The translations under genes were made by a program, and so were the position numbers. A stretch of DNA of 64,000 bases. Source: Marsupella aquatica. Taxonomy: Eukaryota > Plantae > Marchantiophyta. Positions within the stretch are counted from its first letter, which is position 1, and every line of letters starts with the position of its first letter. A model generated the notes under the pieces. It was not told where the DNA came from, ran no database searches, and was given only the letters and a program-made list of their open reading frames with translations. Below, piece by piece: positions 2,161 through 29,369 of this stretch. The stretch covers positions 10,509,874 through 10,573,873 of the forward strand of contig OZ316894.1 of assembly GCA_973895155.1 (NCBI GenBank), read 5' to 3'.

Positions 2161-2190
2161 CACTAGTATAAACCGGGGGGTATTTAGACC

Positions 2191-2520
2191 CCATTAAACG
2201 ACTATTCAGTACTGTATAGGACTTGGAAACGACTGGGAAGGACTCCAATCCTTCATAGGACTGGAAGTCGTATGTTTTGTTACTATAATCAACTGAGTCC
2301 TTTATAGAACTAGTTTATAAGTCGTTTAATAGACTAGATTTTCAGTCTATTGTAGTCTTTGTGTGGGTAGCTTTGGTGAGTCGTTTTCAGTCTTTTATAG
2401 GCTACGATGGTGAGTCGTTCAGAATGACTAAAAAGGTTATGGAGGGTAGTCTTTAAATATACTTTGTGGGTTTATAAAACGACTAAAGTAAACACTTTGT
2501 AGGGTATGTATAAGTCTTTC
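2191..2520. repeat. CACTA subterminal repeats (ACGACT/AGTCGT motif, both orientations)
   Basis: Repeated aaacgact / agtcgt(tt) and decayed variants next to the left TIR. Decayed variants (agtctt, agtcat) near the right TIR. Typical position of TnpA-binding sites. Confidence 0.7.
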
Positions 2521-3022
2521 ATGTCAACTGGATATGAGTGATGAAGACCCCACTATACTACTTGGAATGAACTCACTCTTGTGCACAAATAACACATTCC
2601 ATTCATGTTTTAATGTGTATTTGGAATGAACTCACTCTATAAGCTCACCATTCATCATGTTAACATTAGAACACATAGAGTTTTAGAAAGCCATCTTCTA
2701 TACCATGTACACTAATATGAATTCACAGATTCAAACATCATAGAATACAAAGAAGGTCACAAAGTATTCTTCTATACCATACACACTAATATTGAAATGA
2801 TACAAAACAGATTCAAGTATCGTAGACAATCACCATAGAACCATAGTTTGACATCAATCACTTGTTTCATACATACAGAATTCATAAATATCAATGTCAC
2901 ACAAGCTCCTTCATCCTCTTTACCAACTGGAAAAATTGGTACAGATATTTCTTGGATCTTTCCAAGGCAATGTCAAAATGTGACACAATTCACATGATTC
3001 TATCTACACTTGCATTTAGTCA

Positions 3023-6000
3023 CTACAGACTAACACACTCTGATGGCCACAGCACAAGAGATCCTACTGCATCTGCAATTATTTCTTGAGGTGGATCATC
3101 GTCTCTATTCGGAAATGGCAAATTACAACCGGATACAATCACTGTATTCAACAACACCACTACATGGTCATCTGGGACCACTTTGTCATGGAATTTAGCA
3201 TGATCCGGTCGCAAAATGCCTGTACCCACACATACCTGCCAGTCATCCTCCCATGATAGAAGATTATAGATTGGCTCTGTTGTGGCTATCACCTCCACCT
3301 TACCCTGGTTGTTTTTCTTGGCTTTCCTAGGTGGCTTATACATGACATTATTCATACCTTGGTTGTGAGTCATGACTTTGGCACGAGTGTTTTGTGCTGG
3401 TGATTGAGAATTGGCTACACTCTTCTTCAAAGAATCTGCATCCATATTTGACACTTCCGATTGTGTAGCAGGATTTCCCTACGACATCATCTCAGTATCT
3501 GCCAACATTGTACTTGCTTCAATTGAAGCATCTACAATCTTACTTGCATCCAATGTTGCTCCCAAGTTTCAACGTCGCTTCACCCTGCTCCCACTTGGTT
3601 GAGAGTCTATCAACTCTACATCAACTACAATTCAGTGTCATGTCCAACATAAGTCAATCACTCATGACACGTGCTAAATGTACATGTCACCAACCACAAA
3701 GTTGTCACTATCTCCTTACCATTATGAACAACCTTCTTCCCCTTCTTTGCCATTGCCATATCCTCCATGTTTGCTTCTGCTGATCAATTTACACACCACA
3801 ATATTCAGGTTGAATCTATTAACCACTGAATTGTTTCTCAACATTCATATAGAGGAATTTAAAGCATCAGCTTACCTGATACCTCCTTGGCTATGGTCAC
3901 TGAGGCACTGGGCACATCTTTTTCATTATTGCTCTTTGAATCACCTGATACATCAATCATGATGTCACTTCAAATCCCAGTTGATCCAACCAGTTCTTAC
4001 AGAAAAGATTACCTCCAACCTGCTTAAGCTTCACAAACTCCATGCACTTTTCAAATGATTCATACTGGATCATAGCAGGTTACCTATCTCAGCAACCTTC
4101 TTGCCCTTCTGCTTATTGATTACAGGGTCCTTCTTTGCCTCCACTCTTCCTGCATTCAAACCATTGAACACTTAATTCATGAAAACTTAGTTCTAACATT
4201 TGAACATAGGACACAATGAACAATGGGCCGGTGTCATTTCCATACCTGTGTCAGATTTGCCAATTCCCTTTTTTGTTAACAAGGGCACACTTTGTACAAT
4301 GTTGCCCTCATTGTTTGATTGGGAACCACCCAATTTTTCAATCACAAGCTTGAAATTAGATTCCATTGATGCAAGAAGGTTTGCTACAGATGCCTCCACA
4401 ATATCCAAACAATCAGCCAATTTTGTTTCCACTCGAGGGAGTCCACACTCTAATGACTTCAACCGTTCACACATCTCTGTGAGAGTTGTAACAGTTTCCT
4501 GTCATAACACAACTTACATATCTCAGATAACTGTCCCCAAGAACTGGTTGCTTACTTCCTACTACATTTCTTTCTGATGCTCAAGGCCAAATAGTCACAG
4601 AACATACAGAATTACAACATAATCACCTGTTTGGAAGTCACACTTGTCACCTCACTCCTTTGTTTCATGAACTCCTCTCTCACTTCTTGTGCTGATGGTT
4701 CTTCACCTGTCAATTTCTTCTGCAGTCCACATCAACATACATATGAATGAAACCAAGTATTGATTGTCAATGAAAATATAATAATGGTAGCAAGATGATA
4801 AGTTTGAGGCTTACTATCAGGCATGTCACTGCCTTACCAATTGTTCTTTCACTAGAGCATAACTTCCTCTCCTAGCCTGTGAAAGGTGTTTCACTTTGCC
4901 TTGAGCATTTGACATCAGTTCACTCTTGCTCTGTCCAGCCTCCGACATGAACCCTTTGATTAACCGTATCCATTGATCCAGTTCCAATGATGGGGGTGGT
5001 GGCATTCTCCTGTTAGAACCATTGTCTATCCACATCCTTTTCAACCTATGCCTCTCTTGTTTCAAAATCCTCATTGCATAATCTGATATGCAATCTTCAA
5101 CTGGGCCCTTACCATCATTACCAACATAGTCCCACCGTTCAAGACTGTCCTTGCAGATAGCAACCCAATCAGCTTTGTTCTGACTCCTAAACTCTGTAAT
5201 GCTCAAATCTAACCAACGCAATACTTCTCCTCTTAGGTCAGAATGCCAACGGTTCTTACCATCACATGTGGGAGTTATCCAACCATCGGAATTGACTTCT
5301 ACTTTACCAAATTTGTTACTGTCTCCTGCCTTGGTACTCCCTGAAGCGCTACTAGGTGTCCCTCCACGGCCTGGGGTCCCTCCACGGCCTGATCTCCCCC
5401 CACGGCCTGGATTGCATTGTCCAAACCTCCCTGGAGTCCCTGCACATTTACGGGATCCATTAGGTAAGTATGAAGCATAAATTTTGCTGCCAAATATACA
5501 CTGGACTTCAGAGCAATTCTGCAATGACCAAGTTACCTCTCCCTTGGCGCATAGATGGTTCTGGACCACCTGTCCAATTGCTTTGTCTTGATGAATTAGC
5601 GCCATTTCTCCCGCCTGTGAATGATTGCCTCCTATCTGAACGTGGATGGCCTTTGTTGTTTTCGTGATTGTCCCAATCAGAGTCTGCATAACAACAGGTA
5701 CATGCCACACTGATGGACCTGTAAGATAAACTCTTTGCCATAGCTAGACATCAGATAAGTCCATATTGAGCTAAATCTCTACTACCATCACAAAATCACT
5801 AGCACAAGGCACTTACTTGTCCAATCATCCTCCTCACCTTTCCATTGCCCTCTGTACCCGTCTATACCACGCTCTGGGTGTTCATATTCATCCCATCCAT
5901 CTTCTGCTCCATCATAGTCATCATCATAATCATCAAGCGTCCCTTGCCAATAACTCTGGCTCCTTCTAGGGTATGGATTATGTGATTTCTCTCTAGCTGC

Positions 6001-6158
6001 CCACCTACCTGGCACTTGATGAGGGCCCGTGCATCCTGCACAGGTGCATTTTTCTGTGAGCCCCCTGCATCTGGATCTCCATCCATATCCAATCTTTCCT
6101 CTTCACCCCACTCTCCAAGCCCCATGTCTGTCTCCATGTCATCACCCTCTTCCCCCAT
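3023..6158 (-). pseudogene. TnpA-like (ORF2) multi-exon CACTA accessory gene, probably disrupted
   Basis: Acidic N-terminal exon (5862-6158), ORF 4826-5710 with GRGG repeats and ...QWIRLIKGF...SELMSNAQ, small exon KKLTGEEPSAQEVREEF (~4650-4720), and C-terminal FHDKVVPDDHVVV...LPFPN...IADAVGSLVLWP. Typical of plant En/Spm second ORFs. Exon structure only partly resolved. Confidence 0.7.
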
Positions 6159-6335
6159 AGCTTATGCACAGCACCCACAACCAAACAGGGAGAATCAGCA
6201 CACTAGATTCAAAGTATCAATCAATTTCATGCATATCCAACTATCCTAAACATCATTCCAGGCAGCAATTCCCGTTCTGTGACTCTGTGCAGGTAGTCAT
6301 CCTCAACCTCATACTTGCCAATTGCCAATTGTTGC

Positions 6336-9300
6336 CTATTGCACATCATCAACCTCATCATATTCCATCTCCCCAGGTTCATCATATGTCTCTCTCAATG
6401 TTAACGGGATGAAGTCGGTCCTTGCCCGAGTTGGAACTACAGTCTCCTGACTAGGATGCTCGAATGCTGCATGGTCGTCCAAACTGAACTCTACTTTACT
6501 TCCATCCATCCGCCTGTTCCGTGCTTGGCTATGGCATACCACCCTCCAGTCATGTGACCCCTCCACATCTAGAAAGAAAGCCTGTTCAACTTGGCTAGGG
6601 AAAACAAAAGGTTCAGACCATTCTGGTACTCTGGATCTAAAATTGGCCAACAAGAACCCATCAGGATCACGCTTCATGGTGGCCCTTGGCCTCTGCCATT
6701 CTGATTTCACCCATGCTTCCTTCATCAATATTACAGGGACACTTGTGTTACCATAATTCAAGACCCAAATGTCTGTCGACTCCCCCACGTAACCCATCTT
6801 CATCCACCCCCTCTGTTCTTCAGAGGTTCTCTGCTCAAACACAGATATCAAACCACAATCATATGATACACAATGGTCACCCTGCTCATCCCTCACTTGA
6901 TAATGATTTCCATGTAAGCTCTCATCCGTTTGTAGGTCAGAATAGACAATCGTGGTGGCACAGATAGAAGATACAAATCCTTCTCCATATTTGGGTGATG
7001 TCTACTATGCTCTCGAATTGCCACCCGAATCCACTGCTCGAACTGTGGGAAGGGATCCTGCTGCCCAGAGTGTGCAGCTTTTTGCATATCATATTCCCTG
7101 CAATATGAGGTACAGGCATAGTTAGGTCTAAACAACACATGATAACCTAAGATCACCCTTGGAATAGACAAGAAGCATCACAACAAAGGCAAGTCAATTC
7201 AATCACTCACCTCCATCATGGTTGCATAGGCTCTGTGTTTGCCAGCATATATGAATGAGCCTTGTCTCGAATCGCAACAGACAGCTGCACAACACGTCCC
7301 ACACCTTCAACAACCTCGCCACTCCATCATCTTCACCAGATTTCCAAACTCTTGTCATAGCTTCACCAGACCCAGCCATGTACTCTGTTAGGAACCCCAA
7401 CGTCTCATCCTTAATGTACCCCAATGCCATGGAAGCCTCTGGCCTGTAGTATGTTCTCACATGACCTTTCAACAACTTCATGTATCGCTCCATAGGGTAC
7501 ATCCATCTCGTACTGACTGGCCCATACTGCCCTAGCTCTTCTGCCACATGGATTAGGAGATGAGTCATAACATCAAAGAAAGCAGGGGGAAGTATATCTC
7601 CAAGTCACAAAGGACATAAGCAGCATCCTGCTTCAACTGCTCCAATCCTTGGGGATCCCACACTTTCACACATATACGGCGAAATATATTGCATAGTCGA
7701 AGAATGACATTACGGACTGGTTTTTGCATGAGACCTCTGAGGCATAGGGGCAAAATGTGCTGCATCAACACATGGTAGTCATGTGTTTTCATACTGCCAA
7801 GTTTATTCTTTGTAATATGCTTCTTGAAGGCACCAGCATAGCCAGAGGGCACTTTTAGACAGCTCAATCTATACAAGAATGTCTTCCATTCTTCCTGTGT
7901 GCACACATAGGGAGCTTGGAACTTGAGAAGTACATTGGGATTGCTTGCATGGGGCTTCAACCAAAGGTGAGGGCAAATCCCCTTCTATTGCATATCAGCT
8001 CGAACTGCTCCTGTATCTTTCTCACCCGACAAGAACTTCAGCAAGCTCTCACAAATATTTTTCTCAATGTGCATGACGTCCACATTGTGTTTGCTGGGCT
8101 CAAATTCCTGCACTCCACAAAGCAAAGAATTCAACAACAGAAACACTAATTAACCAAATAGGAGGATTGTAACCAACATCAATCCACCATTGCTCCAATC
8201 TAAAATGTAGATCATACAGGGGCTGAAGGCTAAGTATATTACCCTCCAGTACTCCAACTCCAAGTCCATCAAGGTCTGTCTTTTCACACCGTGTCTCACC
8301 ACTGGATCCTCAGGTTCTCAATCAGTGGCACTTCTCTTGTCCCAATCAGCCTTCCTGGCTGCCCACCTCAGGACTTGCTCTTTGGTGACCCTCTGTGGTG
8401 GGCCACGAAGCTCTGTTTTGTTGTTGAAGTGTGCAATTTGAGACCATGTGTGCCTGTAAGGATGATCAGCAAGCAGATACCTTCTATGCCCCTGAAATTT
8501 CATACTGTGCAGGGCATGCGACCACTCACTTGTCACATTTTTCCCACATGGTGTGCACCCCACATAGCCCTTTGTCACTCGTCCAGATATGATGCCATGG
8601 CCTGAGTAATCTGCTATATCCAGCAAACAAATTGCATGCAGTCTAAAGGGGCTGGGTTGAAGAAGCCCCTTCAGAACATCATGGGTTAATACCCCTTCTA
8701 TCCACAAAGTCTTCGACTCTTCCACTGCTGGAGCCAACATAATATCTATGAATTGCTCGGTCAGAGAAGTTGGTCCAGGGATTAGCAGCACCATCATCAC
8801 ACAAAACCTCTTTGTAGTCATCCATGGGGGAAGGTTGTAATTTAGCAGTGTAACCGGCTAACATGAACAATGGTTGTTTTTGTCTCCAAATGGGTTTACT
8901 CCATCCAGTGATAGACCAAATCGAAAGTTCCACTTCTCTGTAGCAAACTGTGGCCACCTCTCATCAACAAATTTCCAATGGTTGGAATCTCCAATGTGAC
9001 GCTGCATGCCATCACTGTTGTTGTTATCAGAAGTCCATGTCATCAGCTTGGAAATGGCAGGGCATCTAAACAGACGTTGTAGTCTAAGAATGAGAGGAAA
9101 ATGACATTGAAGAACCTTGGCAGGGTGTGTACATTTCCCTACATTCTTGTACCTGTGCTTACCACAATGAGGGCATGTCAATTTATCTGCATGCTCTTTG
9201 CGAAAGAGAACACACCCATCAGGGCATGCGTCAATAGACACATAGTTCAGCCCAAGGTTAGACATCAATTTCCTAGCCTCGTACATATTTTTTGGAATTG

Positions 9301-10040
9301 AATTACCATCTGGTAACACATTTCGGCGCAAGAAGGTCAACAAATTTGTCACAAATATATTGGGAACATTGTGATTGCCACAGATGTTCAACAACAACAC
9401 AACAAAACCCAGCTTGGAGCAATTTGACCCCTCGTAGATAGGAATGCAAGCTTCTTTGGTGTGTTTTGGGCCCCCAAACACCCACTCCCTCTCTGCTGCA
9501 CCTTCCCAGATGTCAAAGTCAGGTTCAGGTGGGCCGTGTCCAATGTGTGGCTGTGGTTCATTGTCCTCTTCTGATTCCACTATGTCGTAAAAAGCATCAA
9601 GGTCTTAAAAAATCTCTTGAACCATTCTTGGGACATCCATCCCACCGTCCTCAGTGACTGCCTCTGCATCTCCATCTTGGTCATCCACGTTCTCGATCAT
9701 GTTGTACCCCAGGACCATCCTCTGCACCGTCTATGTCCTGCTCTACGTAGTCTCTACGCCTAGCTGTATTAGAATCCACAAAGTCAGCTCTCCACTCTTC
9801 ATCAGAGGAGTCTTCTTCTGCTGGTACATTCCAAACCCTTCACCGAGGGTGCCTTTCATGCCGTAGCAGGTGAAGGTGCACAGTGTTCAAACTCAACGAC
9901 TTGAATCCTTGGCACTGTGTGCATGGGCATCTCATCCTCCTACCCCTACCTTGGGCGGCCCGGGCTTGTTCACGCATCCACAATTTAGAATCATGATGCC
10001 TAATCCTAAATGGGTTATGAAGAGGCAACCTTGGAGCCAT
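6336..10040 (-). pseudogene. CACTA TnpD transposase (Transposase_21 family), several frameshifts
   Basis: Motifs RCPCTQC, YVSIDACPDGCVLF, FGLSLDGVNPFG, DVMHIEKNI (~8055-8085), MKTHDYHVLMQHILP, HLLIH...GPV..RWMYPMERYM and EPFVFPSQVEQAFF, spread over several frames. Probable intron ~8110-8242. Confidence 0.95.
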
Positions 10041-10371
10041 CACTATAGACACCCACTCAGCGCCCTGTCATTTTATTATGCAAGTGAAAAATACACTCCC
10101 TGTTAAGGATTTCACCCCCGACTGTACTTGCCAAAAGACGTAGCATAACGTTCCAAAAAAGCAAAAAAGCAAAAAATATAGGTGCCTGAGTCATGTACCT
10201 ATTCTCAAGTGAATGAGACAAAATTCCTAAATGTTTGAGGGTGTAAACTCCTCCGCTGTCCTCACATGTACTGCCTCTGCACGTACATCCATGACCATAT
10301 CAGAGTCCAATCATGTATAGTCATAGACACAGGTGCCAGGTGCGAGACCGGTGTGAGATGTCCTCATCTTA

Positions 10372-10904
10372 CTACCACATCAAATACGGATACCAATCCT
10401 GTTGTCGATGCCACTCAGCCCTGAGGTACTCAGGCATGTACATTAAGTCATCAAGGTCTAAACCCTACTCATGCCATGGTGGTCTTCGATCCGTGCCTAC
10501 AAGCAGTGGCAGTAGTGCCCTCCACGGTGCACATGTTGCTACCAAGTCCCTCCACTGGGTACTAATTAGTCTATATTTGCAGATATCTTGTGCGCCAGAC
10601 ACACAAGAACCCTTGGCCAGACATGTGTAAGAACTATATCATCTGCCAAATCAGGCAACAAGGAACCCCCTACAGCATCGTGCTTGTCTAACTCATCTGC
10701 TGAAAAGTAAATGTCCTCTTCGGACTGTGCATCCTCATTCACTACAGCATTCACAACACATCCAAGGTCTGCAGGCATTATCTCGGATGGAGCTACACTC
10801 TGTCTGGTTACCAATCTACACATGTAAGCCCAAGCAGTAGCCATGCACGATGCAACCCATAGGAGGACCCTACATAGGGCCTGCAGGTCTGGAAGAGGTA
10901 GCAT
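10372..10904 (-). pseudogene. F-box-domain cargo ORF (one frameshift, one internal stop)
   Basis: LLPDLADDIVLTHVWPRV then, after a frameshift near 10595, AQDICKYRLISTQWRDLV. These are the two halves of the F-box consensus (LP.E/D.I...I...L / L.R...VSK.WR.L). Confidence 0.72.
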
Positions 10905-11080
10905 ACCCACCAAAGTCTTCAGCCAAACAGAGCCTAGCAAGTAGATTCACAGTCACACCCCACGCAGCAGGAAACAACAATCACTTCAACTGCGACCAGC
11001 CATGACAAGATGAGTTAGTTCAAGCATCACATTTATTACAAAATTGTGATTTATACAAAAATATGAGGGACTCCTACTCC

Positions 11081-11937
11081 TCACTCTCTCCCACCATTGC
11101 TAAACATACATCTCCGCTGAATCTTGGAGGGCCAGGCCTCAAAAATATCAAAGTCCCAAGCATTCTGTCGCTTCCCTCTTGTTGCTGATTCCAGAAGCCA
11201 ATCAGGGGAAAGCACCCAAAGATTGTTGTTCATGACAAAATGACGCACTGTTGTCTTAAAGAATTTTCTGCATATTTTCATGTATGACAGACCTACAACA
11301 TGAGTGGAGGTTTCTGTTAGACTCTCCTCCACTGTCCCACCTAGCTCAACAACTATGGACTTGTACAGTCTGCACTTAGTCTCCCCAATTCCCTCTTCTG
11401 CAAATACCACACTAAACCCCTTCATAATGGTATTTCTCTCCTTGCCATGCTCATTCAATATAGCATCTGCACGCATACGATGGTGTCTTATGTTGACAAC
11501 AGGTCCATATTGGACAGAAGCAAAGTTGGATTTCTCTGCCGTTGCTTCATAGGCTTCCTTTTCAGCCAAAGCCTCTGCAGTGGCATCCTCACTCTCCCAC
11601 GTACATTCAACTCATATTGCTCAGTACTCTGTACACACCTATGTTTAACAGAATCAGTCAGCCAAGAGACTTCAACTACTTTTAGACCTAGGTTGGTAAT
11701 GGCAGAATCAATGAAGGACCATGACCACTTGTTCATCACATCCAGCCATGTCCCTGCAACAACATGTGTAGTCTGTGGAGTGATGTCCTTGACTTCAGTC
11801 CCATGGAACTCTGAGAATTATTTTTGTACGATTGGCCAACTCACTTGGGTGAACCCATAGTGGCTAGGAATCAAAATGGCTTTGATTCCAGCCAACAGAG
11901 GCGGGTGGTCAACCTTTGTACGTTTCCTAGAGGCCAT
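11081..11937 (-). pseudogene. Tandem-BRCT cargo ORF (pol lambda-like BRCT), one stop and one frameshift
   Basis: BRCT1: LLAGIKAILIP...*FSEFHGTEVKDITPQTTHVV...KVVEVSWLTDSVKHRCVQSTEQYEL, with a stop at 11818-11820. BRCT2: MKGFSVVFAEEGIGETKCRLYKSIVVELGGTVEESLTETSTHVV...WVLSPDWLLESATRGKRQNAWDF. Confidence 0.85.
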
Positions 11938-12232
11938 GTACACACGGGCCACCTAATCACTACAGACCGGAAGATAATGCGTTCACCTGATAATCGAAGG
12001 GCCCTTAAAATGTTGCGTTTATAGCTTGGTCCAGTCCAGTCGTCTGATGAGTCTCTGCTCCGATTCCAAATGGAAGAAATATTGGGACAAACGTACTAGA
12101 CACCTGCAAGGATGCACCTCATAGTTTGAATATGTGCCTTCACAATATTGAAGGTGACAAGTGCAATTGTTTTGTGATGCCACATACAGATGTTGTAAAT
12201 GGGCAGACATTCAATGAGAATACAAAATGTTG

Positions 12233-15200
12233 GTACACTTTAAGGGAATTCTCGCAAATTAAATAGCATGTAACTTATATGCTCATAATGAGAAGTTCTG
12301 ATTTAATTTAAGCAGTGTCATGTAAGTCGTGATCAAAATGATTGCAGCGTTAAAAAAGTTCCTAGAAGGCTTAAGGGGAGTTTTTGAAGGCATGTACCCA
12401 GGAACAAGTAATGAACAACGGTCATTCAGAGAGAGGAGACAAGAGAAATTGATCTAGTCACACCAAGGAGACGCAGAAGTGGCAGTGTGGGCTCGGGCAC
12501 TTCATCGGGAGGCCGGATCTGACTATAAGCTCGGAGGGATCAAGGGGAGATTGGCATCATAATGGGCAGTATGTTGCGAGCCGTCTCATGGAATGTGTGT
12601 GGGCTGTGTGAGCCCAACAGAAAGAATGCGGTGAAAAATTGGATTGAATCTCGGAAGGAAAGGTTGGACATTTTAACACTGCAAGAAATTAAAGCTGACC
12701 AGTTTAGGCTTGATATTGCGTTGAGAGTAATTCTGCCTGCGTATCAGTGTGTCACTTCAATCCCTGAGGAGGGACGGGGAGGCACTTCCCTTCTCATACA
12801 CCCTGCCATTAAAGTGGTAGCTTCAGGCATTGTGGATCTCGGGCGAGCAGCATGGGCATTAGTAGAGTTGGAAGAATGCAATTTTGGTGTAGTGAGCGTG
12901 TATGCTCCTAATTCCCCCAAAAGGAGGGCTATTCTTTGGAATGAATTAAAGCTGCTGCTGCCCCAAGCAAACTGGATTGTTTGTGGGGACTTTAATATGA
13001 CTGAGAGGCGGGTAGATTCTATTGGGAATTCTCCTTTTATCAGGGGCCGAGAAGCTGAGTTTTGGCGATTCTTTAAGGTGAGATTTAATTTGGTGGATGC
13101 AATACTCTTGAAGGGAGCAGCAAATGGGGCATGTTTTACCTGGCGCAGAAATAGGAACGGGAGCATGGTCCAATCCCGGCTGGACAGGTTCTATTTCAGT
13201 GATAATGGAGACTAGATCGAACAGCTGCTGAAGCTTGAGCATGACGGTGGTTCGGCCCTCTCGGATCATGACCCTATTGTGATTTGTGTGAGAATGGTTG
13301 ATGGTCTGCGGGGGGACTGCCCTCGGAAAAGGATTAGACTCTTTAAGGCAAATCCGGCACTATTACTGATTGATGGTACAGTGGAGGCTTTGCAAGCGGC
13401 ATGGTATGAAGGAAAAGGGGACTGCTCTGAACCAATACTGGCTTTTGACAAGGCTAGCAGGAACTTGAGACGAGTGTACATGGGGAAGCAGGCTTCACCC
13501 AAGAAGCAAGAGGAAGAGATGCTGCTATTGCGAAATCAGCTACGGGTGCTGAAGGTGGCGATTATGGAAGAGAGTTCAGAAAATGAACTGCAGGAGTACA
13601 TTGAAACGGAAGACCTATTACACGCAGCGGAACTAGAGGAGGCACATAGAGTAAGACGACTGGCAAGAATCAAGTGGCTGGGGGAGGGAGAGGAACCCTC
13701 TCAATTTTACTTCGCAACGGTAAAGGCAAAGCGGGAACGGGAGGCGATGAAGTACCTAATGTTAGAGGGAGGGACGGTGATCACAGATGCGGGGATGATA
13801 ATGAGAGAAGTTGAAAAGGTGTGCATTGAACTATATGCCCCCGCTGCTCCCACTACTCATGAGAGGGGAAATACTCTTAGGGAACGGGGCAAACTGCTGG
13901 AGCACACTTGGGCTTCTTTATCCACTGCGGAGACTGCAAGGCTGGAGGGGCTGCCAAGCGCTAAGGAAATCCAAGAGGTGCTTTGGGTACTCCCAAAAGA
14001 TAAAGCCCCTGGCCCGGATGGACTTTCGGTGGAGGTATACCAGGCGTGTTGGGAATTCATGAACGAGGATCTGGTCGCCATGGTACAAGAGTTCTGGCTG
14101 ACTGGGAAGCTGGCAAGTGGGATCAAGGAGGGGACGATTAAGTTCATACCCAAGAAGCCTGATAAGAGAATGCTGAAGGATTGGAGACCTTTAACTATGC
14201 TGAACACCATATACAAGCTGATTGCTAAAATATTGGCACTTCGATGAATCAGGATTCTGCCACAACTTATCAGCCCGCAGCAGACGGGCTTTATCCCGGG
14301 AGAAATATTTTGGAAAACATTTCGCTGGCCTGGTTAACCTTTGACTGGCTGAAAAATAGGAAGCATGAGGCACTATTTCTTAAGCTAGATTTTGAGAAGG
14401 CGTTCGATAGAGTAGATCATGATTACATATGGGAGACGATGCATCTGTTAGGCATAAGTAGCAATTTTATTAAATTGGTACAGGCACTGTTGTCGAATTC
14501 AACGTCAAGAATTTACCTAAATGGGATGGTATCCACTGAGATTGAACTTAAAAGGGGAGTCAGACAGGGCTGTCCCCTATCATCGCTCCTGTTTGTAATC
14601 TCCACGCAGCCACTAATGGACTTCATGGATGCAGAACTAGCTATGGGTAGACTTGCAGGGATACAGGTTTCTGAGGCACTTACAATTTGTTATCGTTTCT
14701 TCACGGATGATTTGGGGGTGTTTACGCCTGCCACGGAGAGGAATTTTCAACAGGTTACTGCAGTAATTGAGTGCTATGAAGCTGCCACGGGGGCCCGACT
14801 CAACTTGAGGAAATCGATAATAATCCCGGTTGTTCTGGGGGACATACCGAGATGGCTTAGGGACACGGGATGTATGATCAGTGGAAGGGGGGAGTTACAG
14901 AAATACCTTGGGGCTCCATTAGGCGTTGACTTGAAGATTGAGCAACTGCACACCTTTGTCCTGGACAAAATTGGACAGAGACTATCCTCATGGGCTAACA
15001 AGCTTTTGACATTCACAGGACTATTGCTGCTGGTGTGGCACATCCTACAGGCTATCCCGATTTATCACTCCATGTTCCTCAAGGCATCCTCTGGATTGGC
15101 GAGGAAAATGATGGCGCTGTGTAGAGACTTCTTATGGGGATATAATGCGGAGGGGGGACGGCGGGTGCCATTGGTATCTTGGGCCAGGCTGTCCCGCCCA

Positions 15201-16714
15201 CAGACTGAGGGGGGGTTGGGGATTAAGGACTTTAGGAGTCACTCGGATGCGCTGCTGGCTAAATGGTTCACTAGATCGCTTGATCACCCTGAGTCAGAAT
15301 GGGCTTGTATGTTTGCGGAAAATTTAAATCTGATCGGATGGACAAATTACAAAGTGGTAAGACAAAACAAATACTCTTTTCGGGACAAGATGTTACTCTG
15401 CAGTCCGGGGGCACTCCATGGATTGGCTTACACGGGAGGACTCTGGAAGGCATGGGATTTGCTGCGGTCAAATCTGATATTCTGTCCAACGGATAGGATA
15501 CCGGGGAGGTGGTCGGTTGGGGATGTACTCCGGTGCCTGAAGGGCTTTCAGTCTTGGAGCAACGCGGATATGGCTGCTACCACGGTGCTCTGTGGGAGAC
15601 TGGGTATAAGATGTATACAGGACCTCTGGTCGGAGGACAGACAGGAGTGGCAAAGGATAGAAGGACGATGGGAGCATTTGAGGGGACTCACACCTGAGCA
15701 CCTGACTCTAGGCAGGAATTTTATGGAGGCCTTGTATGAAATTGCACATTGTGAGTGGAGATATGAACCAGGACCCGATTGCTGGTGCTGGGCTGATAAT
15801 TCCGCCCCTTTGAAGTGCTTCAAGCTCCCCAATCGGAGGGCTTACCACCTACTTCGACCTGTGCTGGGGGATGCGCCCAGTCTGAATAGGACGTGGGGTA
15901 CAGGTAAGACTGAGATGGAATGGAATGTGTGTTGGGCAGGTATGTGGGCGGCAAGCATGTCACTGCGGGCCAAGACCTTCATGTGGAGAGTAATAGCTTC
16001 AGGGCTGTTTATTGGGGTGAGGGCGGTTAAGATCGGTCAAGAAAGTGGGGATTGCAAGCTATGCCCGGGAATACTTGAGTCCATTCCGCACTTATTTATG
16101 GATTGCCCACATGCACATAAATGTTGGGCTCTCTGTGCACAAGGCTTTGGGGGAATCTTTGCTGGATACACGGGGGGACTGATTGGGTTGGTGGATTCTG
16201 CAATTGGAAGGCGCCACAACAAGACTGTTATGATGGTAGTGCTTTTTCAGATGTTGTGGGCTTTGTGGCTGGGGCGGAATGAGCACATGTTCCAGGTTGA
16301 TGGGAGTAGGAAGTTAGACTTCAGATTCATATTGTCGGAAGCAGCGGATCATGTCTCTGCTATGTTAATTACATTGCCAGTTTGTAATCGGAAAACTCGA
16401 TTACTGAGGGCTAAGGAAATGATTAATAGGGAACGGATTGCATGGATGAGGCGTAGTGATGTATGGATCACTTCAGGATAGGACAATATGATCTGGGGGA
16501 ATTCTGGTAGGAAGACATGATGACAGCAGTAGCTGCTTGCCTGGCTGTTTGGCGGGGCTGTTCGCATATGTGGCTCTTGTGACCCGCCTTGGGGTCTGGG
16601 CCATCAGGTCTGGGTTACTTTTTGGCTCTTTTTGCTGTTTGGTGCTTGGAATTGTCTTTTGGTTCTGTCTGTGTCCTCTGCCACGGGGTTTTCGTGGCCA
16701 CCATTTAAAAAAAT
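12233..16714 (+). mobile_element. L1-clade LINE, 5'-truncated within ORF1, inserted in the CACTA
   Basis: 13-bp TSD ATACAAAATGTTG at 12220-12232 and 16715-16727. Short A tail 16707-16713. T-rich 3' UTR. Confidence 0.92.
12562..16481 (+). pseudogene. LINE ORF2: AP endonuclease, reverse transcriptase, C-terminal zinc finger
   Basis: SWNVCGL, LQE, VYAPN, GDFN, SRLDRF, SDHDPI, KAPGPDG, WRPLTMLN, LDFEKAFD, GVRQGCPLS, FTDD and CKLC...HLFMDC. In-frame stop at 13213-13215 and frameshift near 14245. Confidence 0.95.
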
Positions 16715-16832
16715 ATACAAAATGTTGTAAGGAAGCATCCTCTCCTAGAGAGGTCCTTCTTCTCAAAATTGGAATGTCTGCAATCTCCAAGGTATCCACA
16801 TCAGGTGCACTATGCATGTACATTATTCAGGT

Positions 16833-17513
16833 TCAAAGCCAAGAAATGTGATCTCTCATGGGAGTGTGCAAAGTAGGATCTATGGCATGGCGATGACAAT
16901 AGAAGATCCATCAATCAACACCATGTGCAGAGTGATGATAGATGTGTCTGTCACAAGCATAGCCTTTTGCTTGACACTCCTTCAAACAATGAAAGTGCCA
17001 CATGGTGGGACACCTAACACAGTGGACTATGTCCACCCAAAAATCTTCATCGTGCTGACCACATGCCTTGCACTTATGAAGTGGGCAAGCTGTGGCAAGA
17101 TTGGGCAAACATGAAACACAAAAGAACCTCACACAATATCTGTCAGGGCATTTCCTAACAAGTGGTGGAGCATCAACAGAGCCCTCATAAGACCCCAACT
17201 TCCCACACTGTGCACACTTAGCCTGCTTCTCCAAACAATCAGTGCACATCCAGCCTCCTTGGTGTGCTGACGGGAGGCCTACCCCTGGACAGTTGTTTTC
17301 TGCAACAAGGTCAGACTCCGGGTTGAGGTGGAAATGCCTCATGCAAGGGCCCTCACATATGGCTAAGCCCCAACCATCGTCACAAATGGCACAACAATGA
17401 GCTGCCTTTTGGAAAATCTGACTTGCGGATAAGTTACTACCATCTGGCCCAACTACACCTGTGTAGCTCATCTCTGTCCCCCGCTTCTTGGCTCGGATTT
17501 TAGGGCGTGCCAT
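16833..17513 (-). pseudogene. EDM2-type PHD-finger cluster cargo ORF (single internal TGA)
   Basis: CAICDDG..LAICEGPCMRHFH, C..C..K..KC..CGKLGS, CPLHKC..C and C.RCP..WH..CL. Past the TGA at 16911-16913 it reads WIFYCHRHAIDPTLHTPMRDHISW, matching the recalled EDM2 post-PHD motif LIYC..HEID..L.TP.RDH. Confidence 0.85.
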
Positions 17514-20500
17514 GCCTACGCATGAGACAGATAGTATAATTTAGCAGAGTGCACAGACAATTTAGCAGTGTACAAAAAGTACAGTGTAGCATATAGACTA
17601 GAGTGGCAATTGCTACTGCAATGAAATGTTCACACACAGATGCAGAGTAGACATACTTTTTGGTTTGTTGACCCCACACTAAAAACTGATCCCCTAGTAC
17701 AATAGCTCCACCTACACCTCAATTTTGTGGCTATGATTTACCAAAGGAGATCTGCAACAAGATTTAATGCATTTGAATCACATACAATAGTCGTGACATG
17801 TAAAACAGGCATTTTTTGAATAGGATTGGTATCAAGCAGTGTGATCAGGGTTGTAATTTATACATCCTAAATAGGCTATGATAGTGAATGAGACAAATAA
17901 GTTAGGCATAAATCACTTTTTCCAGGTTATCACATGGCCCATTAATTCCAGTCTTTGAAAGGAGACTTTTAAGTGAGCTTGCTAGCCTCTTAAATTAGGA
18001 TATTGTACTTAGTGCAGCCATAATAGGATAAGTTATGTACTGTTGACCCTAAACCCTGGACCCAAAATTGCTCATAATTCAAAATTTTAAGTAAATATCC
18101 TCTTTGTTCAAGTCAAAGTGTTAAGTTATAGGTCAATGGTCTCTGGTCTGTGCATGCGGTGTGACAAGTGGTCCTCTAGAGCGTGTGATCCAAACATGTG
18201 TAGACACCAAAGTGACCGGTGGTGGGGTCTGGGAGGGCAGGACAAGTGACATCGCCAGGCACACTACAGGATGGCGAGTGGTTCCAGATGATACATTGTG
18301 CTCTGTGAAAAAACCGACATCCAAGAGAACGGTCATCCAACTCTAGGCTAGAAGCCCTACAGGCAGGGCAATCATATTGGCAACTGTGCACACACCCTTG
18401 GGCCCTAATTTGTGGCGGGTCATGTACGAGAGACAAAAATACTAAGGATGTTGGGAAGGGTGGAGAAGCAGGTACAGGCCGGCTGTAGTTGTTCCTGGCA
18501 ACAACAGGGTACTCAAAGTACCATGCAAACTGGGCTGGAAGGATCCCAAGTTTGACATACTCAAGGCGCAACATCTCTGCCTTGCGTGCAAGCCGCACAT
18601 GTTCAACGTTGTGGGTCCTCACCATAAGTGCTGCTTTTGTGGAGATGACGTGTGTTCACGTCGTCTGATAAGCACCTTCGATCAACAAGGTGAGCAGGAG
18701 CTGTACTTGCCTCACCAACAGCAACCAACCTTAAATTATCAGTTCCCACTCACTGTGTCATTCCATTGGTTCCAGCTAGAGGTCACAGTATAAACATAGC
18801 ATGAAACACTCCTAATCAACTTGCTTACAAACTACAATATCCAGAAAGAGTGAAAGTCTCACCCTGCAGTGAGCAGTAGAGAGGTAGTTCACTGGATGTG
18901 TTGATGTGCAGTTAAACCTCCACTATTGCTTACTTCCGATGTATGCTGCTCAGAAGAAGACATCTTAGTAGTAGGAAATTGCAAATAATGGCCATAAGCA
19001 AACCGTGAGAGTTTGCAGAATGCTACGACAAGTAGGATTATGAAATTCAATTGTGAGCAAAGGGAAAATGTAGTCTTACTAATACTTCACCTTCTGACTG
19101 AATTCTAGAGGATATTTGAATTTCCAATTATAGCAGGATCAGAATGAGTGTGAGATAAATGCTTTCATTTCATATCGAAGCTCAACTGAGCAGGTCAAAG
19201 CGACAGTTGCAATGAAGGACACTATGTACATAGACACAATTAAGACAAGAATTCTTCAATCTATACTGGAATCAAGGTTGCACAACTTACCAGGAAAAAG
19301 GGGCAATTGGAGCAAGATCTCTGCAAGAAAGGGCACCCCCACAAAGAATGCTAAAAGATGTCAACCGCCCATAGCTGAAGGTAAACACTGTGAGCTTTTG
19401 AAAACAGACAAGGCTTGAGGGATTCATCCAATGTCCCACTTCAAGGCAAGACAAGACTATTCATCCATCACAGCAATGCTCAACAGGAATGAAACCAAGC
19501 AAAATTTGGTGACCTCGGCCAATGACAAGGCCAATGTAGTGAACAATCCTTGACCGATCAGGATATGGATTGGAATTACAATTAGTCAGCTCTTCTTCTT
19601 CTTTGTTTTCTAACTCTGGGGGAAATGAGCATGACCAGGGAATTCTCTGAGAAATAGAAGTGCACAGGGAAAATGAAATTGGCTCATTCAGCTGCACAAG
19701 ACCGACCATTGCAACATACTTGAGACAGTTGTTCCGCAATCCATAAAATACCCTGACTTACATGCAATCTGTGTAGTGCTTCTGTTGGCTGTCCTGCAGC
19801 TCACGGCAGTGCCGTTGGGATAGGGTAAGTGAATATTGCCATAGCTGAAGCACATTCAGCTTGCAGCAAGAAGTGAAGGAGCATGGCCAAAAGCAGAAAA
19901 GACAAACACTTGATTGTTCTTCCCTAATACACTGAAGAATTGGTGCAAAACTTGGGCAGTCAAAGGGGAGAGAGGGAGAGGGATTGAGAGACAGAGCTAA
20001 ACGCGTCTCTTGGCAACAGGAAACCATGACTCATGCACTAATAGAATGATTGGGTAGCATGGCAAAAGGAAAGACAAATTTCAAAATGACAACATGGCCC
20101 GCTTGAGCCCTTAATTTGACGGTGCTAGGTGTCCGTAAGATGACTGCCCGGAAGACAATCCGGACAACCTCATACGACAGACTGCTTTTCTAGTGTGAAG
20201 AAATACATGATTACAAGCAACACCACGCCTCATCCAAGCAGGGAATTGAAAATAGAACCATGTCATTCCTGTATTTGACAGTGTCCTCTGACATTGCACT
20301 GGATAGTTGTTATTCCATGTTGGTTGTCAACAGTTTGCTGGCTTGGCACAGCCTAGATAGAACAATAATATCCTGTACATGAATACAACAACATAAATCT
20401 GCATACAGCGATGGCCCGATCACTTGAGGCTTTCGAGCCCTCACAATGTCAGATGGTACCAGGATCTACAGGGGATGCTAAATGGCTTCTCTCAAATCAT

Positions 20501-21102
20501 GGAGTCTTGAATAACTCATATCCAGCGACAAACAAACTCAACAAATTCTGAATTCCTACCGAATCCAATCAGAATCGGCAATTTCAGCAGCTTTGACTGC
20601 CAAGACAAATCTTAATGAATTTCATTGTGTTGGGGTTTTCCATAACTCTTCAGCCATAGGGAGAATGTGTTGAACCTAATCTACCATTCAATCGGGCAAG
20701 CTGTATGCTACGGAGGTATGACATTGCTCAAAATAGGATGGACCAGAGGAGATGTGGCTACTATGCAGCCAGCTGAGAACAGAGCGGAGCGGATCTGCTT
20801 GAGCTCTGTTACTTGTTGTTTGGTTTTTGTGCATGAGTGTAAGGAGTGCGTGCGCAAGCCAGGGCCTATAGTAACCTTCAGCCTGTAGAGGCAATGAAAG
20901 TATTCAACAGACAACCCAACAAAACAATGTGGAACTAAAGTTGCTGGAAAAGGGATGAAAGAAGTGCACTTTGAGCTGCATGGCCGGGACTAACCTTTGG
21001 CTGATGACACTGATAACCAATGGCAGCACTATCAACTGCTTCCTCCTAAGAAATAACCGGCTCCCGATTCTACAACTGCTCTTTATGCTCCACGACCTCC
21101 TT

Positions 21103-21480
21103 CACAACTCCAATGTCCACCTTCCGCAGCAGCAACGATTGCCTCCCTGCTCAGCCTCCTTTCAATGCCTCCACGAGCTTAAGGACCCACTGCAGTCCAC
21201 CTTCCGCAATGGTCGCCTTCCACAGTGCCTTCACAACTCCAATGTCCACCTTCCGCAACAACAACGATTGCCTCCCTGCTCAGCCTTCTTTCAATGCCTC
21301 CATGAGCTTAAGGACCCACTACAGTCCACCTTCCGCAGTGGTCGCCTTCCACAACGCCTTCACAACTCCAATGTCCACCTTCCACAGTAGCAAACGATTG
21401 CCGCCCTGCTCACGCCTCCTTTGAATGCCTCCGCAACCTTAAGGACCCACTATAGTTAAACTTCCGCAGCAATCGCCTCA
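21103..21480. repeat. 129-bp tandem repeat, three copies (third degenerate)
   Basis: CACAACTCCAATGTCCACCTTCC starts at 21103, 21232 and 21361. Confidence 0.9.
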
Positions 21481-22999
21481 CCTTACGATAGACCTTGGCA
21501 CCCTAAACACCTTCCCAGATCATAGGTGCTCCCCTCAGCTAAACCCTCAGCGCCTCAGTGCCCAGATCACAACTCCTCTCGAACTGCAACTCGCTGAAAA
21601 CCTAAGCACTCAGGAGTGCCCTCGACAATGTTGCCATTGCGCTGCACATTGCCCTGCCGCACGACATTTCTCATAAGGAATGGAATAACCTAAGCACTCA
21701 GGACTTCCCTGGACATTGCCGTTGCGCTCCACATTGCCTTGCTGCACATCGTTTCTTGGTAGAAATAGAAAAATCTGGACCTCCAACACAATCTACAAAT
21801 CCTTTTGCAAGCAACTGGCCCTCTCCTCAGCAGGTCGCGATGGTAGCATGACTTTCTTGAAACAAATGGCAACACCAAGTCGCTTTGGGTGCAGCCACAA
21901 CACATCGGCGGTGTGGGTCAGGAGAAACGTGCAACAATGAGAGGCCACAAGAAAATGGGATCACTAAACCTCATTGTAGAGACGTTCCCACCAAGAGAAC
22001 ACGGAAAACCTTGCTCCGATCCCTAAACTCCCGATCCCACCAAGAGAACACAATAGGGCGGCTCAGATCGGAAGAAAGAGCCCTTGTGACTGTAAAACCC
22101 TTGGAACACTACGAAGCCCTGCAAAACCTCAACATTTGACATGCATTCGATGCTCTTCACTCACAACACTCACTAAACCAACACTTAGTGGGAGTAGTCA
22201 CGCTTACTCTTCACCCTGCCATGATCCGTTGAGATGAGCCGTTGAGTCTGCACCGTTGCGCACATGTAAGGGGTTTGTAGGATTGCCAAAATACCAAAAT
22301 ACTACATTAGGCCCTAAACAAGTCAGGTTAAATTTGGGCTCAGGGTTAGGGACAACTTTAAAGGAAACCCTTACCTACATGGCCATATTGGGTATGTTAT
22401 ACATTTATCTTGGCCTGGCAAACTTCAATAAAGTGGGATGTTGGTGAAGTAGAGTCGGCTGTGGTCGTCCAAATTATGCTAGCCCAATATGTGTGCACAT
22501 TTTTCTTGGCTAGGCAAACTTGAACAGAACGGGATGTTGGTGAAGCCAAGCACCCTAAATAGAAATTGTATATGTTGCCCATGCATAGCAAGGCCGATGA
22601 ATGAATTGAGCATAATAGCACTTACTATTTGGCAATCTGACCCATGCCCTTTTAGGGTGGAGGACAACAACGTCTCCTTGAGTCGAATCACTATGAACAC
22701 AATGAAGAGGGGGTTTAATCCAGTATGCAACCCCATGACCACCGCTGTCAACGTCCCCTAGAATTACCCTCCTCAGCATAAGTGGTCATTACCCATGATG
22801 TGCTAGACTATTCATCCTTCACAAAGTAGCAAGGTTACTTCTCATAGTCTTTTAGTGAACCATAAAACACTAATAGTCTTTTCTAGTTTTCAACAAAACC
22901 GGTGCAATGGGTGTGAGTCATTTTAAGTATGGAAAAAGGACTTAGTGGGCTTAGTCCTATAAGGTATGGTCTAAATTGCCCCGGTTTCTACTAGTGATT

Positions 23000-25677
23000 G
23001 GGTCTGTGAAGATTCAAATGTTTGATGGCGCTGTGCGCACAGTGTTCGGAGTCAGGTATGTACCTAGCATGCGTAAGAATCTGATTTCACTCGGTGTGTT
23101 GGATTCAAATGGTCATCAATAGAGCGTTATTGATGGTGAACTTCAAGTTAGGTCTGGAGAGACAGTGATTTTGAAGGGGAGCAGACAGAAGAATTTGTAT
23201 GTATTATAGGGCAATACTGTATGTGGAGAGGCCAATGTAACCAAGTCTCACGAGGAGATGACTCAACTGTGGCATTCACAGCTAGGCCATATGAGTGAGA
23301 AGGGTTTGGCTATCTTACGGAAGAATGGACTCATTTCTGATTTGCAATCTTATAAATTAGAGTTCTGTGAGCATTGCATTCTTGGAAAGCAGCATCGTCG
23401 TGCTTTCGGTGTTGGAACTCATCGTTCCAAAGCGGTTCTTGAGTACATACATAGTGACGTGTGGGGTCCATCCCCGACTCCCTCACACTCTGGAAAGTTA
23501 TACTATGTATCATTTATTGATGATTACTCAAGATTTGTGTGGATTTATTTCATGACGCATAAGTATGATGTCTTGTCCATTTTTAAGAAGTGGAAGGTCC
23601 AGGTGGAGAATCAGACTGGAAATACGGTCAAGTGTTTGGATACAAGGGTGAAGAGTCTAAGGTCAGACAATGGTAGGGAGTACACTTTAGTGGAATTTGA
23701 AGAGTACTATTCAGAACAGGGGATAACTCAGGTCTCCCGTACTGACAAAGGAAAATCTCCTATCCCGGATCTCATTGAGGGGGAGATTGGTCATGAGGTG
23801 CATGACCGGAGAGAAGGAGTTGCTCCAATTATGGAGTTGGTTCCCGTGCCAGAGGAACCAGAGAAGTTTGTTGATGTTGGTGAGCAGCAAGTGGATGCTG
23901 CTGAGCTTCAAATTGTACCAACACACGCAAATCAACCAGAGTCATCGGCTAGAAGAGCATCTGGTCGCACTGTACGCGCTCCACCAAGGTATGGACAGTG
24001 GGTTGATTCATCTCAATTGCAAGAGGAGGACTTTGTTACTGATGATGAGGGTGACGCGTTGATTTTGGAAGAAGGGGAACCTTCTTTATTGTATGAAGCA
24101 AGTGCTTCAAAGGAGAAGTAGGAGTGGGCTGTAGCAATGCAAACGAAAATGCAGTCACTGAAGGACAACAAAACTTAGGAGCTTGTCAAGCTGCCTGAGG
24201 GACAGCAAGTGGTGGACAGCAAGTGGTGGACAGCAAGTGGATATACAAGCTGAAGGATCAGTTCACAGGAGGTGGATCGAAGGTCTACAAGGCTAGGTTG
24301 GTAGCCAAGGGATTCACACAGGAAAAAAATGTGGATTACAACGAGGTCTTCTCACCAGTTGCTAAGTACTCAACAATACGGCTATTGTGTGTGCTTGTTG
24401 TTATGTTTGGTCTGCTGCTAGATCAGATGGATGTTGTCACAACTTTCCTCTATGGTACCTTGGAAGAGGTGATCTTCATGAGACAGCCGCTAGGTTTTGT
24501 GAAGAAAGGGCAAGAGGATTTGGTTTGTAGGTTGTTGAGATCCTTGTACGGGTTGAAGCAATCACCAAGATAGTGGAATAAGCGGTTTGATGATTGGATC
24601 CGTGCACAAGGCTTTCACAGGAGTGTGTTTGACCCATGTGTGTATCTTAAACCGATGAAAAATGTTGTTTTTGGGTTCATTTTAGTACTTTATGTGGATG
24701 ACATGCTTATTGCGGCCAAGGATAGGTCTGAGATTGTTAAGCTCAAGGCACTGCTTAGTGCAGAGTTTAAGATGAAGGACTTAGGGCTAGCTAAGAGAAT
24801 TTTGGGTATGGAGATCACTGGGGACTTGAAGGCTGATAAGCTATGGTTGACGCAGAGCAGTTATGCGAGGAAGGTAATTGCAAGGTTCAACATGGGGGAT
24901 AGCAAGCCAGTAAGTACCCCATTGGCTCCACACTTCAAGTTGTCATCAACTTTCTGTCCTATGAATGACACAGAGAAGGGGTTGATGTCAAAGGTTCCGT
25001 ATGATAAGGCAGTGGGGAGTCTCATGTATTTGATGACTTGCACTAGACCTGATCTTGCCATGGGTATGGGCAAGGTGAGCAGGTACATGTTGAATCCAGG
25101 GAAGGTACACTGGGAAGCAATGAAGTGGATTATTCGGTATTTGAAGGGTATCGTGGATCATGGTCTATTGTTTGATGCACATGCTGATAATGCTAGATCA
25201 TTGATGGGCTATGTAGATGCTGACTATGCACAGGATCTGGATCGGAGGAGGTCAACAACAGGTTATGTGTTCACACTTGGAGGTGGATGCATAAGTTGGA
25301 GGTCTACTTTGCAGAAGTGTATTACTCAGTCTACTACAGAAGCGGAGTATGTTGCAGTGCTAGCGAAAGCAGCAGCGGAAGCGATTTGGTTGGATAGACT
25401 TATCACTGAGATGGGATTGCCACAGGGGAATGTGAAGCTCCATTGTGATAGTCAAAGTGCACTCCACCTTGCTGTGAACCAGGTGATGGATAGCAGAGTG
25501 AAGCACATCGACGTCAGGTACCATTTTATCAGGCAGGTTGTGTCTGATAATATGTTTGAGCTAGTCAAGATTGACGGTAAACTCAACCCGGCTGACGCTT
25601 TTACTAAAGTGATTCCTTTGGAGAGTTTTTCTAGACACCGTGATGCGTTGCAGATTTTACAATTGCCTCACAAGTAG
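23000..25677 (+). pseudogene. pol: Copia pol remainder: protease end, truncated integrase, RT, RNase H
   Basis: VRYVPSMRKNLISLG, LWHSQLGHMSEKGL, CEHCILGKQHR, IHSDVWGP, FIDDYSR, RSDNGREY, YKARLVAKGFTQ, MDVVTTFLYG, SLYGLKQSPR, LYVDDMLI, DADYAQDLDRRRSTTGY and KHIDVRYHFIR. Several stops and frameshifts. Confidence 0.95.
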
Positions 25678-25868
25678 GGTTACTTAACATTTGTGCAGAT
25701 ACTGAGATATGCTCTTGCTCATTCCTTGTATAGGCTACGACTTAGTTCTGGTCTACTCTCGTATAAAGAGGGAAAAACCGGTTTGGTTTTTCTTTCCAGA
25801 ACTTCCAGCTGAGCAGTCATATTTGTAGCAGTCTTTACCCTCCCCTAGACCAGAGTCAAGGGGGAGAT

Positions 25869-28528: not shown

Positions 28529-29369
28529 TCAATCGGTCTTCAGACCCACTTTCTGAGCTACCTTCTCTGCGTCACGTTTGACTGCCTTGGCTGCCTCCAC
28601 TCCTACCTCCTTCAGCCCGGTCGCAGTTTCAGACACCTTGCTAGGCATGTCTTTGAACATATCCTTCGCAGTATCTACATTCTTGGCCACCTGACCTGCT
28701 GCTTGATCTTTCGCTTCAGTTGCCTTTCCTCCTGCCTCGGCCGTCGTCTCCTTCACCTTTTCTTTCGCTTGATCTTTCATTGCGGTTGCCTTTTCTCCTG
28801 CCTCGGCCGTCGTCTCCTTCACCTTTTCTTTCGCTTCACCGACCTTGTGAGAACTTTCAGAAACCACATCCTCGGCGACTCCCTTGGTTTGCTCCTTTTG
28901 TTGTTTTATTTCGTTCGACTTCTTTTCATAGCTATCATCCACACTTCCCCCTCCCTCATTGACCATCTTTCCACTTTCATAATCACGAGTCTCTTCATTG
29001 TCGGCCTTTGCCTGTTCTCGTCATTAGTAATCGAGAATCACAATCAGTCCGTTATCGGGTGTTAGCATCTTGATCATTGTCTAACGCAAACCTCTCGGCT
29101 GGGAAATTATGTGATTTTAAATACAACCTCTTCTCCCCTAAGCTATCTCGGATGTACTATATGAAGAGACTCGGCACCTCAGAGAAGGAAACTTACGCAA
29201 CAAATGAACTTATAGAACTAACCTGAGCGTCAGAGTGTAATCCCCGGCTAGGGAAGAGCCGTCCTTGCCAAGGAACCGCAAGTGCCTCAAGGCTGGTGCT
29301 ACTGCCGTTGCCGATGCTCGGCCGCTGCAAGAGCGTCAGGAACTGCGCTGATATTCTCCGTGCAGCCAT
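28529..29369 (-). CDS. Group 3 LEA-like protein with predicted mitochondrial transit peptide, copy 1; exons 29369-29223 and 29011-28529, 209 aa
   Basis: Arg/Ser-rich MAARRISAQF...SRGLHSDAQ leader, phase-0 GT-AG intron, and K/E/A/T-rich 11/22-mer repeats (AKEKVKETTAEAGEKAT..KDQ). Very hydrophilic mature region with no Cys or Trp. Confidence 0.82.

Follow-up and report, generated by a model that had tools for sequence, protein, structure and literature searches.

VANC and KIU of the VANDAL Mutator-like elements (MULEs) are extra transposon genes that probably derive from a host chromatin regulator of the MAIN-like type (PMC13547354; also PMC13317346), and VANC acts on the chromatin of its own element (PMC5735166). 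A 20.8-kb transposon of the CACTA (En/Spm) superfamily, situated at 2161-22996 of a 64,000-nucleotide stretch of Marsupella aquatica (contig OZ316894.1; hereafter the window), is similar in that its cargo is likewise transposon-encoded, lies inside the terminal inverted repeats (TIRs) and is family-wide. This cargo comprises three open reading frames (ORFs) 5' of the transposase, encoding a miniature EDM2-type triple PHD cluster (mini-PHD), a pair of BRCT domains and an F-box-like motif. In contrast to the VANDAL elements, which are MULEs with a VANC that recognises DNA motifs and brings about demethylation, the transposon described here belongs to the CACTA superfamily and its PHD ORF has a predicted histone-reader fold. 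No MAIN- or PMD-related Pfam match was obtained in any ORF scanned and, judged from its sequence, none of the cargo genes is a VANC. The reading we favour, to which we give about an even chance, is that of a CACTA family with PHD, twin-BRCT and F-box-like ORFs 5' of the transposase, in which the PHD and BRCT ORFs are selected accessory genes and the PHD protein is a predicted adaptor or decoy on histone H3 tails.

Fungal DNA transposons, EnSpm elements included, encode TET/JBP accessory genes proposed to serve the escape from silencing (PMC12730594). Both cases concern EnSpm/CACTA families with a stable chromatin-related accessory gene, but the fungal product is an eraser enzyme, whereas a non-catalytic reader occurs together with BRCT and F-box-like ORFs in the plant element. 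Host-derived sequence 5' of the transposase, as observed here, is also known from Pack-CACTA and other CACTA captures, e.g., in Chenopodium (PMC8978399; PMC13317346). Those captures are near-identical fragments, many of them non-coding, and most of the elements concerned are non-autonomous. The element of the window, in contrast, bears a transposase, and its cargo consists of complete ORFs that have a family history of their own. An F-box in a fish DNA transposon is part of the transposase protein of a Zisupton isoform (PMC12062965), whereas the F-box-like ORF of the window is separate and weakly supported. A CACTA element with PHD, BRCT and F-box cargo was not found in the literature searched, with most subscription journals, Repbase and supplements outside the scope of this search.

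The mini-PHD gene and its family

Three NSD-type PHD models match the PHD ORF, each below the Pfam cut-off. Among 28 candidates of a word search, three relatives were identified, P0004, P0005, and P0006, with lengths of 226, 220, and 217 amino acids and identities of 76, 71, and 37%, respectively. All three are intact and share a Met start, a basic N-terminus and a DHISWL end at the same stop as the window ORF, which is collinear with its homologs and contains no introns. A profile search against 1.84 billion representatives resulted in 360 matches. Short proteins with a length of 166-245 amino acids occupy seven of the first 8 places, with host proteins of the EDM2 type behind them; named host matches belong to Calypogeia, Riccia, Marchantia, an orchid, mango (EDM2-like), and Artemisia.

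Trees were calculated from 42 rows, i.e., the window ORF, 13 further short proteins and 28 long host proteins, with the remaining profile-search matches left out. All 14 short rows form a single clade versus the 28 host rows (ultrafast bootstrap (UFBoot) 100; FastTree 0.999), which is separated by a stem of 1.33 (1.327) substitutions per site and adjoins liverwort-type proteins (support 89); a branch next to that of the short clade has a value of 61. At 21 of the 24 Cys/His ligand columns the residue is the same in all 10 full-length short rows, distant rows of which are 30-52% identical. The window PHD retains 24 of 24 at 78% identity to its closest homolog.

With EDM2 and EDM2-like proteins (AAE complex) the family shares the triple atypical (NSD-type) PHD cluster, the liverwort proteins being nearest. 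It differs in its length of about 220 amino acids versus 600-1800 (about 1300 for EDM2), and in the identity of the window PHD to the 28 host rows, which amounts to 29-36%. The RFD occurs only in the long rows, and the mini-PHDs lack it as well as the C-terminal (PGR/ELP) region. A CxxC in place of the host HxxC of PHD2 was observed in 8 of 150 matches, all with a length of 143-245 amino acids, while 124 matches show HxxC and 18 neither of the two. Furthermore, PHD2 is approximately 25 residues shorter in the mini-PHD family than in the hosts, and the residues preceding the first PHD cysteine differ from those of angiosperm EDM2, with the acidic residues there being replaced. The mini-PHD is not an EDM2, although it is predicted to function in the manner of an EDM2 PHD module.

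Due to the deep monophyly of the family, the kept ligands and the low identity to the hosts, a recent passive capture of EDM2 can be excluded. Near-identity to host gene fragments including their introns, which the preliminary description of the locus had named as the sign of such a capture, was not found for the PHD ORF. Selection on the PHD and BRCT ORFs was judged from protein-level conservation. For the mini-PHD this conservation indicates long purifying selection on the miniature form, and the gene is old. We infer that this selection acted within transposon copies.

The predicted fold of P0004 reached a predicted local distance difference test score (pLDDT) of 88 and a predicted template modelling score (pTM) of 0.82, based on a 50-row alignment; since most of these rows are host proteins, the model indicates compatibility with the fold and is not an independent proof. 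A fold from a 4-row alignment reached a pLDDT of 45. The P0004 model resembles the PHD tandems of NSD1-3 and JADE1, with a best VIA-align Z of 5.4, which is below the noise level given by the tool itself.

Occurrence of the cargo among copies of the element

Part of the stretch 4800-12230, by which runs were chosen and outside of which the PHD ORF is located, is contained in 9 of 11 listed runs (five coded organisms and one uncoded), none of which is recorded as RNA. Contigs of the runs X1, X2, X5, and X9 (organisms A, B, C, and E, respectively) were aligned to 3001-23000, and summed contig depth, which does not equal copy number, was compared between bins. In X1 it amounts to 172,000 for the F-box, 84,000 for the BRCT, 201,000 for the PHD and 209,000 for the TNP2 bin, 1,700 for the long interspersed nuclear element (LINE) nested in the CACTA copy, and 3,400 for 20343-22343. 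The same pattern, with the cargo like the core and the LINE low, was observed for X2, and a weaker one for X5; in X1 and X2, 20343-22343 is covered 30-60 times less than the cassette. The cargo is therefore not confined to the window copy, which the preliminary description had named as a refuting outcome, but is family-wide DNA, and the copy-to-copy variation expected of passive capture was not observed in X1 and X2.

In X5, one contig whose shorter side counts 88 letters joins 12416 to 16733 and connects the PHD side with the BRCT side, the LINE being absent. The same joint occurs in one X2 contig with 28 letters only, which is under the bar of the tool. A LINE start near 12236, suggested by a 13-base repeat, was dropped, since the contig joint places it near 12417. 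The 8-base insertion of the BRCT ORF is missing from 52, 69, and 100% of the depth in X1, X2, and X5, respectively, and contigs of X1 and X2 carry one extra base at 10602, the site of the F-box frameshift, at loose contig ends. In X9, low-depth contigs were found over the PHD (30 differences in 227) and the F-box side. The 18 substitutions that were classed (among 40 of 1649 differences) represent differences between window and family and are too few to indicate selection.

Neutral simulations favour selection: of 300 runs each, the PHD frame survived in one at 40% identity and the BRCT frame in none at 60%. Several observations weigh against selected accessory genes in a CACTA family. The simulations comprised substitutions only and have to be compared with protein databases that hold open frames only, and 7% of the neutral PHD frames remained open at 78% identity. 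Metagenome contigs contained no mini-PHD family locus with either of two PHD alignments (5 loci are unrelated PHD genes), viral contigs none in searches with PHD and BRCT, and genome contigs searched with TNP2 none except for one 13-residue chance match. The protein homologs are thus without genomic context and none is demonstrated inside a transposon. A span from transposase to cargo was found in none of the listed contigs. In X5 (806 versus 79-548) and X9 (423 versus 0.6-3.3), TNP2 is covered much more deeply than the cargo, which would be expected of further CACTA families that either have no such cargo or are too diverged. The BRCT frameshift (11600-11607) is kept in about half of the depth of X1 and a third of that of X2; being common to many copies, it points to the amplification of a broken sub-lineage, as would follow from a protein that is either dispensable or active in trans. 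Furthermore, X1 and X5 skip 43 bases at 10695-10739 inside the F-box ORF, for which no homolog was found among 20 candidates, and the runs compared may include the species of the window itself.

The missing context of the homologs, the frameshift and the skip would also suit a scenario that we consider unlikely, in which the mini-PHD and twin-BRCT proteins belong to families of host genes in a plant lineage that lacks annotation; copies of these genes would have been captured once by the CACTA family and amplified as passengers or as anti-silencing camouflage, and capture of gene fragments 5' of the transposase is described for CACTA elements (PMC8978399). None of the 16 short-PHD clusters looked up, however, has an NCBI source, in contrast to 7 of 7 host-type clusters, even though EDM2-type genes of liverworts and angiosperms are present in annotated genomes. 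The short-PHD clusters are located on contigs of 0.9-13.4 kb, and at least 5 of the 16 pass in mid-domain into unrelated sequence or off-frame, like decaying repeats. The lack of an NCBI source, the short contigs and the broken members fit transposon copies in unannotated genomes without proving them. Against host genes also speak the collinear, intron-free window ORFs and the complete set of PHD ligands at 78% identity to the closest homolog. Presumably, the protein homologs reside in CACTA elements as well, and both the PHD and the BRCT ORF likely represent element-borne accessory genes.

Twin-BRCT and F-box-like ORFs

The two BRCT domains (PF00533, E 1e-8 and 4e-4) are 22% identical to each other and about 55 residues apart. 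An intact twin-BRCT cluster of 294 amino acids with two members shares the Met start of the window ORF and is 65 and 56% identical over the two halves. In the preliminary description the BRCT domains were likened to those of X-family polymerases. An X-family origin is no better supported than others: comparison of the BRCT profile resulted in LigIV (0.012), BRCA1 (0.03) and TdT (0.24), which are about equally weak, phmmer yielded TdT with E 0.06 for the window BRCTs, and the Atlas returned a generic BRCT match under 0.9. A host donor was found neither for the BRCT nor for the F-box ORF.

Of the three domain labels given in that description, the PHD cluster and the twin BRCT hold, while the F-box label is the weakest, since F-box and F-box-like models match only the second half of the ORF, which is split over two frames, and below the Pfam cut-off (E 0.02 and 0.04). 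The ORF contains no Pfam substrate-binding domain, with at most about 45 residues following the motif, and the proposed degradation of host factors thus lacks support, as does the status of a selected gene. An F-box without a detected substrate-binding domain fits a decoy better than a degrader; the product would at most be an SKP1-binding decoy and may be a passenger. The interpretation given there, an evolved accessory module as opposed to random capture, is supported in part, as likely for the PHD and the BRCT ORF. The specific functions named there, H3K9me2 reading included, are hypotheses.

En/Spm undergoes alternative splicing. All three ORFs share the strand of TNP2 and lie directly 5' of it, and a gain of domains in CACTA coding sequence is described (PMC8978399). 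It is conceivable, yet quite improbable, that the ORFs are exons spliced onto TnpA or TnpD transcripts, i.e., domains gained by the transposition proteins. Such exons are difficult to reconcile with PHD homologs that begin with a Met of their own and a basic N-terminus and whose stop, conserved at 37-76% identity, directly follows the final PHD residue, or with a BRCT homolog beginning at the same Met.

Possible mode of action and organisation of the element

Separate accessory genes would help the element, hypothetically, to cope with host silencing and repair. An autonomous master copy with intact cargo ORFs, each likely expressed as a small nuclear protein, could supply these proteins in trans and let broken copies such as that of the window still be mobilised. 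Lacking the RFD and the C-terminal domains, the mini-PHD would bind H3 tails of silenced copies as a reader without effector, i.e., as an adaptor or decoy, and on heterochromatic nucleosomes it could shield them from host readers or tether the transposition and transcription machinery. The BRCT pair may bind host proteins of break repair where the element excises and inserts. At transposons, EDM2 binds chromatin with dimethylated lysine 9 of histone H3 (H3K9me2) and favours transcripts that traverse this chromatin in full length (PMC7529245, PMC7890070), which makes a role of the mini-PHD as adaptor or decoy plausible; at 33% identity the H3K9me2 ligand of EDM2 is not transferable to the mini-PHD.

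Chromodomains steer chromovirus integration into heterochromatin. A PHD protein that is a reader without effector might, as a rather improbable alternative, have been selected for steering integration in the same way and not for opposing silencing. The window copy is inserted in a copia element, and the ratio of observed to expected CpG is 0.24-0.35 in the CACTA core (2161-19000) with CHG near 1, which indicates that copies were CG-methylated over long periods with little CHG decay. The argument, though, draws on one insertion site, and the PHD ORF is separate and unfused to the transposase.

For the adaptor or decoy on H3 tails, a wider version can be proposed tentatively, though we consider it less than probable: a CACTA lineage distributed widely among non-model land plants, with an old cassette of three to four genes, in which an EDM2-derived reader decoy would act against heterochromatin reading, the twin BRCT would recruit repair and the F-box would be a decoy of SCF. 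If the proposed function is true, it would constitute the first plant CACTA counter-silencing system made from a host reader. To our knowledge, the anti-silencing accessory genes tested in plants hardly extend beyond the VANC proteins of a single MULE clade. An EDM2-derived PHD kept by CACTA elements through 60% divergence would be a second candidate, with a mechanism unlike that of VANC (histone reader versus DNA-motif binder). As a naturally minimised EDM2 PHD module, the mini-PHD would have a directly measurable ligand, and its history suggests that among the "captured fragments" of large genomes in non-model plants there are evolved genes of transposons.

The features of the element are compiled in Table 1. 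Its ends, CACTAGTATAAACCGGGG starting at 2161 and, inverted, CACTAGTAGAAACCGGGG ending at 22996, pair in 17 of 18 bases and are flanked on both sides by a 3-bp target site duplication. TNP2 matches PF02992 (E 1e-35) and DUF4218 (E 2e-22), with PF13963 and DUF4216 below the cut-off, and starts near 10040 on the minus strand. This copy is dead. The ORF pieces downstream of TNP2 may represent TnpA, judged from motifs.

Table 1. Features of the CACTA element, in window positions.
Feature	Positions	Strand	Remarks
CACTA TIR, 3' end of the element	2161..2190	+	ATT target duplication just before, 2158-2160
ORF pieces 3' of TNP2, at the expected place of TnpA-type exons	3026..5743	-	no relevant Pfam match
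TNP2/TnpD-type transposase	6339..10067	-	at least 7 broken pieces; Transpos_assoc, Transposase_21, DUF4218, DUF4216
F-box-like ORF (label weak)	10372..10904	-	frameshift near 10602, stop 10467; start uncertain: 10904, 10844, 10823 or 10778
Twin-BRCT ORF, basic N-terminus	11081..11937	-	ATG 11937, end at about 11081; one stop (TAA 11820-11818), 8-base insertion (11607-11600); intact 294-amino acid homolog
Nested LINE (endonuclease, reverse transcriptase, zf-RVT)	about 12417..16732	+	opposite to transposase; absent from other copies; ends approximate
Mini EDM2-type triple-PHD ORF	16833..17513	-	ATG 17513, stop 16833; 226 codons, one internal stop (TGA 16913-16911); stand-alone family member
Family-core stretch of unassigned content	17675..19008	-	149-amino acid Cys/His-rich ORF at 18625-18176
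CACTA TIR, 5' end of the element	22968..22996	-	ATT just after, 22997-22999

With the LINE removed, the gaps amount to about 580 bases between PHD and BRCT, 180-260 between BRCT and F-box, and about 330 between F-box and transposase start. These distances, as well as the position of the ORFs between the TIRs on the transposase strand and the few lesions per ORF, agree with the preliminary description. The extent of the cassette given there holds for the three ORFs and overlooks the family core at 17675-19008, where the coverage of the element is deepest in both X1 and X2. Its 149-amino acid ORF yielded no match in Pfam, PDB and the Atlas or versus the PHD profile; the stretch is possibly a fourth cargo gene or a cis element.

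In X1, coverage of the adjacent 5' part of the element (19009-22343) is lower than that of the core by a factor of 7 to 80; several contig joints skip portions of this part, which is variable and copy-specific. It contains a tandem repeat with a 129-base unit at 21099-21356. Short GACT/AGTC motifs occur 11 times within 2198-2513 and twice near the opposite element end. The copia-type long terminal repeat retrotransposon hosting the CACTA element is located at 620-2160 and 23000-25680 and contains several stops; its coding sequence is collinear across the CACTA insertion site. Together with the LINE, a three-level nesting results (copia > CACTA > LINE).

Outside the element, a second LINE at 30843-33995 has an open frame of 1051 codons (reverse transcriptase, zf-RVT) and is 71-76% identical to the nested LINE in short arms. 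A LEA-like gene with its flanks is duplicated (28400-30400 and 48500-50550), the copies being 83-93% identical and 20 kb apart. Degenerate arrays of 70-170-base repeats are located at 50900-52060 and 58228-58660, and a gene of the Sec23/Sec24 family at 54135-56036 has an unbroken frame of 634 codons.

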